DNA of 64,000 nucleotides, taken from positions 1 through 64,000 of the forward strand of contig JAPMXV010000031.1 of the NCBI GenBank assembly GCA_026936335.1. The letters run 5' to 3'. Every line of letters begins with the position of its first letter. Position 1 is the first letter of the stretch. The notes beneath the pieces were generated by a model. The model was not told the origin of the DNA, did not search any database, and saw nothing but the letters and a program-made list of their open reading frames with translations. This stretch comes from Mantamonas sphyraenae STR306 (Eukaryota; Protista; CRuMs). Made by a program: the position numbers and the translations under genes. Positions 136 to 53,556 of this stretch are shown here, one piece after another.

Positions 136-411
136 CTCCCCCTGAATGATGGTCTATCATATGTGTGATGAGTCCGGTCTATGTCAAGTGAGTTGTGATT
201 GTGTCTGCTGCCTGGGTGGCTGAGTGGGGTGGTGACATGGGGCAGTGGGCAATGGCTGGGAGTGGAAATGTCGCTGGTGAGTGGCCGTCGTCCTGCAACG
301 CCGCGCAGTCAGCATTGCCCATCCGCCTCCAACCAAAATATCACCAACACCCACAACACCCTCCACCAGTCCAACACAATTCACATACCTTCCAGTACCA
401 CCACTACCACC

Positions 412-3400
412 ATGGACGAAGACTACTCAAGCACTCCGAAGCAACAACACACACCCAACACCTACCCAGCGTGCGTTCTGCCTTCCAGTCCGTTTTCTGA
501 CTGCTCGCTGCTCCCGCTTCCTTCCCTCCTCCGTGCCTCTGTCGCTTCCCTGCACTCCTCCCCTGCATCTCCACTTCCCCATCACCACCGCTGCTGCCGT
601 CTCCGCTCTTCTTCGATCCCCTCTCCCCTGTCACTGCCCTCCCCGTTGCCAGTTTCCCGGTCTGCCAATCTCCTCCGCTTTCCCTCTTTGCTCGTTTAGG
701 CCTCCCTTCACCCCCGCTTCTGCCCTGACGGCGTCCATTCCGCCTTTCGCTCACCGTTCCCGATCCGCCCTGCCCCTCCCCGTCTCCCCCATAGCCACGG
801 GTACATGGTCCCTCCCATGGCTGCCCAGCCGTTTCCGAACATGCTGCCCCTCTCTGGCGTACAAAACCCGTACCAGTACCCACAACCACCCATCATCTGG
901 GTCCCAGTCAACACCCACCCCCATCAGCACTACGCATATGCTCATCAGGGCCACCCATACTTCGTCTACCCTCCTCCGCCGCCTCCTCAGCCGCGACAAC
1001 CCGCCCAGGTGCACTTCGCTCAGCCTCCGTTGCACCCTCCCCCTGCTCAACCCACCACAAACCACAACCGCGTCCCCAAACGCGTCAGTCCTGCCTTTGT
1101 TGGCATCACACGGACCACATCCACCACTACATCGTCGTCCCCCACCCACCAGGGCACACGGCAGACTGGAGACAGCGACGACGACGCAGCCCAGTACACA
1201 CCCACACATGACACCGGCGACGTGGAGGACCTGATGTTCCTGAACTTTGGCCATCGTGGACCACGGTCGACCTCCAGCAAGTCAGAGTGGATAACCATCT
1301 CAGGGATGCAGGCGTACGAAGAATACGGCGAGGCAAACGACGCAACCCAGCAGCACGTGGACGACGAGTTGGAAACTCAGGGCCCACTCTTCATTGCAGA
1401 GACTGGTGATGCGATGGATGAGGAGTACATGCCGCCAGACGACAGCGACGACGACACGGACGACATCGAGCAGGAGGACAGGGACGAATGGCAGCCGAGA
1501 CGCACAAGTCGAGGTTATAGACGTCGACGCAGAGGCAGAAACGGCCGACGTATTAGTCCACAAACGAACAAAGGCAGCGGACAGAGCAGGCTCGGGTTCA
1601 CGGCTGGCAGTGGCACAGAGACAGGAACGTCGAGCACACGGGCAAGGAGGGCCAAGAACGGAGACACCGGCGCACGGAAGAAATCAGGCGTGAACAAGAC
1701 GAAGAAGTTGCCAGATGGTGTTGTGCGCAAAGGGTGGGCAGTTGGTGGAAATCATTGCGAGCGCAGCCACAGCAACAAGAAGGAGCACACGGCACTGCTG
1801 AACCACATGCACACTATGGCCTACCAGCATCCCATCGACGACATCTCAGACCTCATGACCCTGCAGGCGCGCGTTGTTGTCTGCCATGGCACCACGACCA
1901 CGCTGGTCCGACAGATTCAGCTCGCTCTGGGCAACATTCCCCTCTCCCAGGGCGACATGGCCTTCTTTCTCACCCTTCTCGGCCGTAACATGGATCACAA
2001 TGCGTGCGGCCTTGCCATCCTCAACGCTGGTCTGGCCATGGGCGTGACAAAGGCTGGGTTGAAAGTGTGCTGGCTGGAGGAGCCACACGACCACGGCGAC
2101 CCCAACTACGCCCTCCTCCACCTGCTCATGACAGAGATGGACACTCTCGGAGACAGGCTCCATCCCACCACCTGGAAGGAGCACGAGCAGACCCAGTTGT
2201 GGCTGCAGGAAGCACGACGCCCTGCTGACAACGACAGCGACCCACACTGGACACAATGCGACTACGACCACCACATCCGCACCACCGAGGTGGACAAGTG
2301 GCATCCAGAGTCTGTGCGCAGTGGCTGGAGCAAAGCCAACAGCGACGAGCGTGGCAGCTGCACGGCGCGGGAGTTCCAGACGCTGCTGGCACACATGAAG
2401 GCACGCGCAGCCAAGCACCCTCGCCATCAGTACACACACGAGCACCAGGCACTGCGTGAGCTGATCAACAACGGCAGCCTGAACTCCCTGCTGCGACACA
2501 TCATCCTGGCGCTTGGCAACGTTGCCGTGCCGCCTGTCGATCTGGCCTTCTTTGTACGCCTCCTCAGGCCACGACTCACCTACAAGCAGGTGCAAAGTGC
2601 CATCGGCAACACAATCGCCCGTGGCATCACCTCCCTCTCCCTCAAGATCGCCTGGCTCGACAAACCCAAACCCAGCGACGCCACACTGCACACCCTCCTC
2701 CACACCCTCATCGACCGCATCTCACCCCACATCACCACCCGTCCCACCCGCCGTTGACGCAGTCAACACCCTCGACATCCCCGAGCTTGTTCTGCCCGAG
2801 CCAACAGAGGAGGAGATGATGGCCGTGGAGGATGGACTGCCGGATGGCGTTGTGCGCAGTGGCTGGACATTCTGGCGCAAGAGCGAGCGCATGCACAGCA
2901 ACAAGAAGGAGCACACGGCACTGCTGAACCACATGCACATCCTGGCCAATGAGCATCCCATCGACGACATCCCAGATCTCATGACCCTGCAGGCGCGTGT
3001 TGTGGTCTGTCATGGCACCACGAAAACGCTGATCCGACAGATTCAGCTCGCTCTGGGCAACATTCCCCTCTCCCAGGGCGACATGGCCTTCTGCCTCACC
3101 CTTCTCAGCCATGACATCGATCAAAATGCGTGCAGTGCTGCCATCCCCAACGCTGGTCTGGCCATGGGTGTGACAAAGGCTGGGTTGAAGGTGTGCTGGC
3201 TGGAGGAGCCACACGAACACGGCGACCCCAACTACGCCCTCCTCCACCTGCTCATGGCAGAGATGGACACTCTCGGCGACAGACCCCATCCCACCACCTG
3301 GAAGGAGCACAAGCAGACCCAGCTGTGGCTGCAGAAAGCACGACGCCCTGCTGACAACGACAGCGACCCACACTGGACACAATGCGACTTTGACCACCAC

Positions 3401-4001
3401 CTCACCACCACCACGGTGGACAAGTGGCACCCTGAGTCTGTGCGCAGTGGTTGGAACTGTGCACCCACCAGCGACGAGCGTGGCAGCTGCACGGTGCGGG
3501 AGTTCCAGACGCTGCTAGCACACATGAAGGCACGCGCAGCCCAGCACCCTCGCCATCAGCATACACGCGAGGACAACGCACTTCGTGAACTGATCAACAA
3601 CGGCGACCTGCTGTCCCTGCTGCGACACATCATGCTGGCGCTGGGCAACGTTGGCGTGCCGCCTGTCGACCTGGCCTTCTTTGTCCGCCTTCTGAGACCA
3701 CGCCTCACCTACCAGCAGGTTCAACCTGCCATCAGCAACACCCTCACCCGCGGCGTCACCTCCCTCTCCCTCAAGATCGCCTGGCTCGACAACCCCACAC
3801 CCAGCGACGCCACACTGCACACCCTCCTCCACACCCTCATCGACCGCATCACACCCCACTTCACCACCCGCCCCACCACCATCGCACTCGTCAACGCCTA
3901 CCCCATCCCCTCCTTCACCCTCCCCAAGCGCAAAGACCTCTCTCCTCCTCCTCCTCTCCTCCTCCTCCTCCTCCTCCTCCAAACGCCAACGCCTCGAATG
4001 A
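412..4001 (+). CDS. Subtelomeric protein (~1,090 aa): P/Q/H-rich and acidic N-terminus, basic NLS-like patch, then four copies of an unrecognised ~170-190 aa domain (A-B-A-B)
   Basis: ATG 412; phase-2 intron 471-794 (gtgcgt...atag) joins in frame to ORF 805-2757. ORF 2513-4525 is joined by removing one C at 2747-2749 (repeat period 1129 nt = 376 codons + 1). Probable end KRQRLE-TGA at 4001 after a frame slip in the (TCC)n tract. Confidence 0.7.
1708..3910 (+). repeat. Intragenic tandem duplication, two ~1.13-kb units (about 1708-2836 and 2837-3910)
   Basis: Near-identical blocks, e.g. HSNKKEHTALLNHMH and SDATLHTLLHTLIDRI occur in both units at the nucleotide level. Confidence 0.95.
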
Positions 4002-4031
4002 ACCACCCTTTCATTCACACATCCCTCCCAC

Positions 4032-52004: not shown

Positions 52005-52113
52005 TGGAGTGAGATTGGATGGGAGAGGTTGAGAGGGTGGATGTTTTGGGACAACAAAACCGCTGGATGAGAGAGCGCGCGGTGCATCACCTGAAATCAG
52101 AAAAAGATCGCAC

Positions 52114-53487
52114 ATGTCCGAGTCGGAAACCCAACAGAAGCAAATTCTCGTCTGCGGCGGCGCAGGCTTCATCGGTAGCCACACAGTGGTGCAGCTGTAC
52201 GAGAACGGCTACACGTGTGTCATCCTGGACAACTTTTGCAACAGCAGTCCCGAGGTGAGTGCGTGTGAGAAAGGAAGAAAAACTCGCCCTCGAGAAAAGC
52301 TTCCAAAGAAAACGGACGCCGCGGCGACGACCATGCGAGACAATCTACCGGCGCCATGGATGTGCGATGGCGTAGAGACTATGATTTATGCACATGGCTG
52401 ACGTCGAAATCGCAACGCGGTGCCGTCTGCACAGTGCGTGAAGCGCTTGGAAGCAATCGTGGGCCAGGAAATCGAAGTGTGTGAGGTGGACCTGCTGGAC
52501 AAGGACGCGGTGCGTGATGTGTTTGATTCCCACCCAAACATCGAGGCAGTCATCCACTTTGCGGGCCTCAAGGCCGTTGGCGAGAGCGTCCAGAAGCCGC
52601 TGCTTTACTACAAGACCAACCTGACCGGCACCATGAACCTGCTGGAGGTCATGGCCGACGTCAACGTCAAGAACATTGTGTTTAGGTGGGTTGGAGGGAG
52701 GAGTGGGCAAGAGTCGCAAGGCTGCACAGTGTCCATGGGGACGCATGGGTCCTGGGCAGGGAAGTGGAGGGGTAGCGCACTCCCCGAAAGCCCGGCCACT
52801 GACACGAGACACACTCTGGGCGCACACAGCTCGTCGGCCACGGTGTACGGCACGCCGCAGTACCTTCCGCTGGACGAGAAGCACTCGCTGTCGACAACCA
52901 ACCCGTATGGCACGACGAAGCTGTGGATCGAGGGCATCCTGCAGGACGTCTACAAAGCCGACAACGAGTGGCAGATCTGCATCCTGCGCTACTTCAACCC
53001 GACGGGTGCACACAAGAGTGGAACCATTGGCGAAGACCCCAAAGGCCCGCCCAACAACCTGATGCCCTACGTCTCGCAGGTGGCGGTTGGCAAGCGCGAA
53101 GTCCTCTCCGTCTTTGGCGACTCCTACGACACGCGCGACGGCACGGGAGTGCGCGACTTTATCCACGTCGTCGACCTGGCACAGGCTCACGTGTGTGCCC
53201 TCGGTCGCCTCGAGGAGAAGCCAGGCGTGTGCATCTACAACCTCGGCACGGGCACAGGCTACTCCGTCCTGGAGATGGTCGCTGCCATGGAGGCTGCCTC
53301 GGGTAAGAAGATCCCCTACAAGATTGCCCCTCCGCGGGACGGCGACGTCGCTTCCTGCTACGCCAACCCGGCCCTTGCCAAGGAGGAGCTCCACTGGGAG
53401 GCCGAACGTGGCCTCGAGGAGATGTGTGCGGATCTGTGGCGCTGGCAAAGCAACAACCCCAACGGCTTTGACACCGCCGAAGAGTGA
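52114..53487 (+). CDS. GALE: UDP-glucose 4-epimerase
   Basis: Introns 52255-52434 and 52686-52829; [48 protein letters not shown]. Confidence 0.97.
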
Positions 53488-53556
53488 ACGCGTGGGTTTG
53501 GTTGATGATGACTGGACTGGACGCATTGAACTGTACAGATTGCTCTGAATCAATCT

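Follow-up and report, generated by a model that had tools for sequence, protein, structure and literature searches.

The leading strand of yeasts carries an excess of C and A, and the nucleotide skew switches at replication origins with jumps of ~8-9% when origins are pooled, according to the available portions of two studies (PMC3459929; PMC3590768). The available text of the first also states that the direction of the skew must be known before origins are called from it (PMC3459929). Nuclear replication skew is normally faint and is seen only after pooling hundreds of origins. The window described here, the first 64,000 nucleotides of contig JAPMXV010000031.1 from the protist Mantamonas sphyraenae STR306 (GenBank assembly GCA_026936335.1, + strand), shows skew near saturation at single loci, with sharp reversals ("flips") beside two tRNA-Trp genes. 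A sequence-only reading had proposed a saw-tooth skew with jumps at tRNA genes, left by efficient and stable replication origins. The asymmetry is real and is locked to chromosome position. It is likely to mark fixed replication start sites, and is far stronger than reported for yeast or human origins. All results come from this one window, which consists of 64 kb at a chromosome end and carries two identical tRNA genes.

Skew was calculated as (G-C)/(G+C), read on the + strand, at 9492 four-fold degenerate sites, and a family-adjusted profile was obtained by correcting the four-fold skew for codon family. Stretches with an uncertain frame were excluded from the counts (for example 19970-20470, 32380-32795 and 56009-56950, and likewise one segment of a HECT ligase exon). 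The skew follows chromosome position and not genes. It is seen at silent, intronic and intergenic sites, and it saturates near 0.85. At 16.5-36 kb the four-fold skew is -0.83 in + strand genes and -0.76 in - strand genes; at 41-52 kb the values are +0.20 and +0.44. Position gains ~760 log-likelihood units and gene strand adds 0.2-0.6 on top of that, so the proposal that the bias follows the strand and not the gene passed every test of one against the other. Introns and gene gaps show the same map as the four-fold sites. Six + strand introns at 22-33 kb contain 359 C and 74 G while four at 50-53 kb contain 169 C and 243 G (Fisher p 2e-37), and three - strand introns at 25-30 kb have a + strand skew of -0.63 to -0.86, which makes them G-rich in sense, all as first claimed. 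Within the C-rich plateau the sites vary independently of one another (bin variance 0.83, lag-1 autocorrelation 0.03), so repeats do not drive the statistics. In addition, both sharp flips fall between or within genes whose orientation stays the same.

These data bear directly on a transcription-linked origin of the skew, in which the coding strand of a gene passes from C-rich at its start to G-rich at its end, as it does in unicellular fungi, and such genes together add up to the domains. The HECT gene alone does go from C-rich to G-rich, the C-rich strand is the sense strand in 35.5 of 49 kb of clearly skewed gene length, and such a pattern has been published, as the accessible part of PMC3315797 shows. 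However, the C-then-G sign change occurs in only one of 27 genes, and by gene count the sense-strand preference is 16 of 27 (p 0.44). On the plateau, short - strand genes have sense skews of +0.83 to +0.88 at their 5' and 3' ends alike, and for their + strand neighbours the two ends lie at -0.78 to -0.96. A gene-anchored model has an Akaike information criterion (AIC) of 8084 compared to 6449 for position, and adding gene-anchored terms to position brings no gain (6455 vs 6449). The transcription-start skew of plants and fungi, a sense strand that is C-rich where genes begin, does not help either, since the 5' end term is -0.12 to -0.20 logit with a log-likelihood change of at most 2.5 and the wrong sign, and end effects are negligible. 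Transcription-linked skew is thus largely refuted and is left with a very slim probability.

The overall range of the family-adjusted four-fold skew is ~1.6, and single flips measure 1.06-1.2 skew units (>100 points). A saw-tooth describes this only in part; raw GC skew shows the domains first described, and their shape is that of a plateau plus a ramp. The left chromosome end is marked by a telomeric (TAACCC)n repeat (family D15) at positions 1-135 of the + strand. It is followed at 181-405 by a small G-to-C flip, chosen post hoc and centred at ~295 (41 G and 10 C, then 42 C and 4 G), which is a candidate telomere-proximal origin. The subtelomeric domain at 800-8000, which covers two duplicated gene pairs, is C-rich as had been noted, only moderately so (four-fold -0.34 in + genes and -0.43 in - genes; adjusted skew ~-0.2 to -0.6). 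At 8500-10450 a G-rich domain climbs within a - strand sortilin/Vps10 gene to an adjusted +0.67, reached at 10.0-10.45 kb; overall, values of +0.6 to +0.78 are found at 9.5-10.5 and 46.5-49.5 kb. Sharp flip 1 (10550-11300) then takes the skew from +0.53 to -0.69 within less than ~1.1 kb, with its centre at 10.65-10.8 kb (range 10.55-11.1). The short domain at 11308-15500 starts at -0.88 in a - strand ankyrin gene and rises to ~+0.25 in the FH2 region of a formin gene. Sharp flip 2 (15650-16400), ~1 kb wide and centred at 15.8-15.9 kb (15.65-16.25), runs from +0.20 to -0.86. The stretch before it had been described as G/A-rich up to 16.26 kb, which is true of the raw sequence; the silent sites are at +0.2 to +0.3 over 14.5-15.5 kb and already at ~-0.4 over 15.5-16.2 kb.

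The extreme C-richness reported to the right of the second tRNA gene proved correct. The C/T-rich plateau at 16500-37000 has an adjusted skew of -0.85 and is nearly flat at 16.5-36.5 kb (-0.88 to -0.83), with ~12 times more C than G on the + strand at silent sites for 20 kb regardless of gene direction. It spans + strand genes (BRO1, Efg1, COG3, kinase, PH-ankyrin and the 5' part of HECT) and - strand genes (Rpb4 and three unnamed). The C-to-G change placed by the sequence-only reading at ~37-41 kb is a gradual ramp at 35000-47000, 9-13 kb wide and centred near 39.5 kb, which may be a zone where forks meet. A G/A-rich peak of +0.56 to +0.78 follows at 46500-49500, with the maximum at 47 kb. 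The return toward C near 53 kb is a broad slope at 49500-54500, 4-9 kb wide and centred at 51-52 kb, possibly a weak or diffuse origin zone, and it has no tRNA gene. Beyond it lie a moderately C/T-rich domain at 54000-61200 (four-fold -0.34 in + genes and -0.43 in - genes, counted over 53.5-61.2 kb) and, at 62500-64000 within a prominin-like gene, a return to G-rich sequence that reaches +0.5 at 63-64 kb. Two of the three large G-to-C switches are ~1 kb wide and the third is 4-9 kb wide; in the other direction, from C to G, the changes at 8, 13 and 39.5 kb are either gradual or not well resolved.

The skew changes sign inside the HECT E3 ligase gene (32380-43616, + strand), and the codon counts agree with all four shifts claimed earlier. 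From the early to the late part of the gene CTC:CTG changes from 129:23 to 13:50, GTC:GTG from 59:4 to 11:51, ACC:ACG from 55:6 to 12:14 and TCC:TCG from 60:5 to 5:17. The four-fold composition of the C-rich strand is C 0.64, T 0.16, A 0.11 and G 0.09, with four-fold G+C of ~0.7-0.8 in most domains. T exceeds A on this strand in both gene orientations (396 T to 282 A in + genes, 69 to 33 in - genes), with a T/A ratio that depends strongly on neighbouring bases, and two-fold sites show a milder transition asymmetry. The signs of the C-G and A-T differences must match at equilibrium if transversion rates are strand-symmetric. Because they differ, purine-to-pyrimidine transversions must exceed the reverse on the C-rich strand. 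Assuming neutrality and equilibrium, strand-biased transversions would therefore contribute, as transition bias alone cannot yield an excess of C over G alongside one of T over A. Amino-acid use also varies with the skew. Between genes with C-rich and G-rich sense strands proline is 5.1 vs 1.2%, glutamate 4.3 vs 10.9% and glycine 3.9 vs 8.1%. These are different proteins, and the proposed reshaping of amino-acid use by skew stands as an association across them.

The reading given an even chance is that the skew is the long-term mutational footprint of forks that nearly always travel in one direction, from fixed origins at the G-to-C flips, two of which lie beside tRNA genes. The C/T-rich strand would be the leading strand, as C marks it in yeasts. 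Origins would be located near 0.3, 10.8 and 15.8 kb and diffusely at 52 kb, and forks would meet at ~8.3, 13-14.5, 39.5 and 63 kb. The open chromatin of Pol III genes may favour origin licensing beside them, and the mutational difference between the strands would include transversions. That Pol III genes specify near-deterministic origins, and that a transversion-rich strand-specific mutation process drove silent sites near saturation, is possible and is put forward tentatively.

Fork models were simulated with random firing times and fitted by heuristic optimisation from one or two starts, a procedure by which polarity cannot be proved. With the C-rich strand leading and origins at 0.3, 10.8, 15.8, 52 and ~74 kb, the origin model reached a negative log-likelihood (nLL) of 2821-2827 with 12 parameters; 56 free 1-kb bins reached 2773 (6081 sites). 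The widest ramp lies in the longest gap between origins, as stochastic fork meeting predicts. The same models were applied to the opposite polarity, in which the leading strand would be the G/A-rich one, in line with the G-rich leading strands of bacteria and humans. Broad zones of initiation would then lie at the C-to-G ramps (~8.5, 14, 40.5 and 62.7 kb), and the sharp flips would be sites of fixed termination, with forks stalling near the two inward-pointing tRNA genes. With freely placed barriers this model matches the origin model over 8-64 kb (AIC 5675 vs 5667). It has further points in its favour. The two tRNA genes converge, so that forks leaving the interval meet each of them head-on, and yeast tRNA genes slow head-on forks (PMC9177527, in its available portion). 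The 51-52 kb slope is midway between 40.5 and 62.7 kb, and a subtelomere with a C-rich + strand needs no telomeric origin. However, the barriers require delays equivalent to 37-55 kb, that is near-absolute blocks at 10.6 and 15.6 kb, while yeast tRNA genes merely slow forks, and markedly so at a small subset, as far as the accessible text goes (PMC9177527). A fork moving leftward would reach the fitted left barrier (10.6 kb) only after passing tRNA 1, barriers fixed at the tRNA genes give an AIC of 5781 compared to 5678-5707, and reverse polarity without barriers gives the worst fit (5853). A fully polarised subtelomere is predicted where -0.3 to -0.4 is observed, and the main initiation zone would be placed inside an 11-kb gene. 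Opposite polarity is considered unlikely on this balance.

The two tRNA-Trp(CCA) genes were identified by tRNA gene prediction and Rfam. Copy 1 (11192-11264, + strand) is followed by a T run. Copy 2 (16260-16332, - strand) is inverted relative to copy 1, with arms of 90 nucleotides that are 96% complementary. Apart from these two identical copies no Rfam RNA was above threshold in the window, the 18 and 108 calls made by ARAGORN under relaxed settings included none that was credible beyond the two known genes, and a B-box consensus had 16 matches in the window with 13.5 expected. The sharp flips are complete at the tRNA genes. Their centres (~10.8 and 15.8 kb) lie 0.4-0.5 kb to the left of both copies, so that one centre is upstream and the other downstream of its tRNA, each in the 3' part of a + strand gene running into the tRNA. 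General gene-end effects do not account for this offset, and low-GC windows are not specific to the flips. When the 32 gene gaps are ranked by G-to-C drop, those bearing the tRNA genes rank 1 and 3, and rank 2 is a neighbouring gap that shares flip 1. The probability of both being in the top three is 3 in 496, for a post hoc test on copies that are not independent.

A small spliced + strand gene (10483-11080, intron 10736-10865) sits on flip 1, and its contig in run X3 has a depth of ~870, compared to 25-46 in its neighbours. In the flanks of tRNA copy 1, at 11141-11285, contigs of runs X1-X3 depart from the window in a cluster of several base changes and indels; they may be alleles, other copies or assembly error. 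At 16205-16753 the formin frame seems to pass through the antisense tRNA into the BRO1 leader. One additional G is present at 16205-16209 in contigs from runs X1 and X2, and the read-through is therefore likely an assembly indel, with the gene ending before the tRNA.

The offset would also be in keeping with a secondary role of the tRNA genes. In that case the skew would be replication-linked, with one strong origin near tRNA 2 and the 5-kb segment that separates the tRNA genes inverted afterwards, or with tRNA copies that landed at existing origins. The copies form a 90-nucleotide inverted repeat, flipping the segment produces one near-symmetric jump from +0.86 to -0.89, and constant or linear fits over 8.2-16.3 kb gain ~85 AIC when it is flipped. 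Contigs break inside both tRNA genes, and none bridges either with at least 31 letters on each side. In the fork models, however, the flipped order does worse (AIC 5746 with one origin and 5693 with two, vs 5667 as assembled), and the small + gene at 10.5-11.1 kb, which is outside the segment, is already near zero skew. These alternatives are judged quite improbable.

Mirror-image arms of skew could also be built outside normal S-phase replication, by repeated breaks and their repair at the tRNA genes and the telomere, if resection or break-induced synthesis exposed one strand on each side to damage. The sign would fit resection, in which the + strand is exposed to the left of a break and the - strand to the right, so that loss of C would leave G-rich sequence on the left and C-rich sequence on the right. 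The telomere end would also fit, the amplitude and the transversion component are unlike known origin skews, and a large non-replicative jump has been published for Candida centromeres (PMC3459929, in the part available). That jump decays within ~3 kb according to the same text (PMC3459929), while here a flat plateau of 20 kb faces only 1-2 kb on the opposite side, which is no symmetric decay. Nothing of this kind anchors the broad flip at 51-52 kb, and T is not raised on the G-rich strand, unlike plain C-to-T damage. Breakage and repair is for these reasons held to be rather unlikely.

A number of observations weigh against fixed origins at the flips. Pinning the origins to the tRNA centres costs ~29 AIC, as the best centres are in the 3' parts of protein-coding genes, and the third flip (51-52 kb) occurs without a tRNA or any other Rfam RNA. 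No flip was found at the same tRNA motif in the 14 of 24 other contigs that had at least 500 bases on each side (mean raw drop 0.007 and at most 0.11, compared to 0.33 and 0.47 here). The flip therefore does not accompany this tRNA in general, although those contigs are short and belong to unrelated genomes that are AT-rich. The two flip regions have no 10- or 11-mer in common (2.8 shared 10-mers are expected at random). Two efficient origins just 5 kb apart are unusual. Including the subtelomere puts the origin polarity ahead of the barrier model by ~119 AIC, an advantage that depends on the assumed origin at 0.3 kb; beyond 8 kb the barrier model fits equally (nLL 2821.4 vs 2821.3) with four extra parameters. 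The leading strand cannot be fixed from sequence alone, and the origins are inferred. C is accompanied by T here whereas yeast leading strands are C+A rich, and the amplitude is more than 10 times the published 8-9%. The sole large fungal jump published (74%, Candida centromeres) was judged not replicative, in the available part of PMC3459929. What remains of the original proposal of efficient, stable origins, two of them at Pol III genes, is that an origin model fits and that the tRNA gaps rank first and third; set against this are the equal fit of the barriers, the offset centres, the flip without a tRNA and the identity of the tRNA copies.

The window is ~60% G+C and gene-dense, with short GT-AG introns, two of which are confirmed by spliced contigs of run X3. 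About 33 genes were annotated by hand, with frames checked and domains named by Pfam: leucine-rich-repeat (LRR) paralogues, sortilin, ankyrin, formin, BRO1, Efg1, COG3, kinase, Rpb4, PH-ankyrin, HECT ligase, NPC1-like, PB1, GalE, Lines, desaturase and prominin-like. Protein searches found distant relatives only (COG3 at most 32% identity), and for the BRO1 gene metagenome contigs gave 485 pattern matches of which none was confirmed as a relative. Two tandem subtelomeric paralogues at 830-3900 are ~88-90% alike across shared 300-nucleotide blocks and their protein has no Pfam match. They are followed at 4075-7991 by two tandem LRR genes on the - strand, with 84-nucleotide repeats and a C-terminal region in common. 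The ankyrin (-) and formin (+) genes are head to head at 12733-12768, with at most ~35 bases between the likely start codons. The HECT ligase (33106-43616; ~3,600 residues) carries SPRY, ZZ and PH domains, and the PH domain in this place makes what we take to be an unusual mix. Several genes that are otherwise intact, among them PH-ankyrin, HECT and NPC1-like, have frame breaks (~30170, ~32500, ~42660, ~46110, ~50050 and 56000-57000), which are most likely assembly indels.

Near-saturated skew implies that forks keep their direction very stably and that mutation or repair differs strongly between the strands. If this is confirmed, origins (or termini) could be mapped in a non-model eukaryote from its sequence, and tRNA genes would offer a test of how origins are specified outside yeasts. 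The protein composition of this lineage, and hence its phylogenomic signal, would then vary with the place of a gene relative to the direction of forks. On the bolder view that Pol III genes specify the origins, the replication map could be read from sequence alone, and fork direction would set codon and amino-acid use.

The word "tRNA" does not occur in the searched text of PMC3459929 and PMC3590768, and no statement on skew flips at tRNA genes was found in the available portions of PMC3460189, PMC5359979, PMC11807225 and PMC3269016. Titles and abstract openings yielded no description of a nuclear skew this large that flips at tRNA genes, in a literature coverage that mostly excludes subscription papers. 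As far as PMC9177527 is accessible, the polar fork pause sites at yeast tRNA genes resemble the flips in that tRNA genes are fixed landmarks for forks; yeast pausing is a slowdown of head-on forks, unlike the near-absolute blocks that a barrier reading needs here. Classical nascent-strand sequencing produces spurious peaks at tRNA genes, according to the available text of bioRxiv 10.64898/2025.12.22.696044. The 5'/3' GC skews of unicellular fungi, in the accessible part of PMC3315797, are alike in affecting four-fold sites and amino-acid use and in allowing a sign change inside a gene. They follow the coding strand and gene ends, a pattern found here in one of 27 genes. Human origin skews have a far larger spacing. 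As the available text of PMC3459929 describes them, the human jumps are sharp with gradual decay and are read as fixed, efficient origins, like the pattern seen here, but have the opposite GC sign (upward in G+T) and a small amplitude. The Candida albicans centromere in the same text (PMC3459929) is similar in that its local jump is very large (74%) and lies in a eukaryote genome that is compact. It differs by decaying over ~3 kb, occurring once per chromosome, being opposite in sign to the replication skew and being judged non-replicative, where the 64 kb of the present window contain several flips and a plateau of 20 kb. Another likeness is to the origin skew of S. cerevisiae, K. lactis and L. 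kluyveri, which in the portions available (PMC3459929; PMC3590768) is locked to position, present at third codon positions and intergenes, and shows a G-to-C switch at origins, a slow return from one to the next and a spacing of tens of kb. The yeast jumps of 8-9% are pooled over many origins whereas single flips here measure 1.06-1.2 in family-adjusted four-fold skew, which is not strictly like for like, and C goes with A on their leading strand and with T here. By the T/A sign and by size, therefore, this locus does not belong to the yeast type. Its strand asymmetry is real, unusually strong and locked to position, and behaves as replication skew does; fixed origins beside tRNA genes are the most likely, unproven reading of it.

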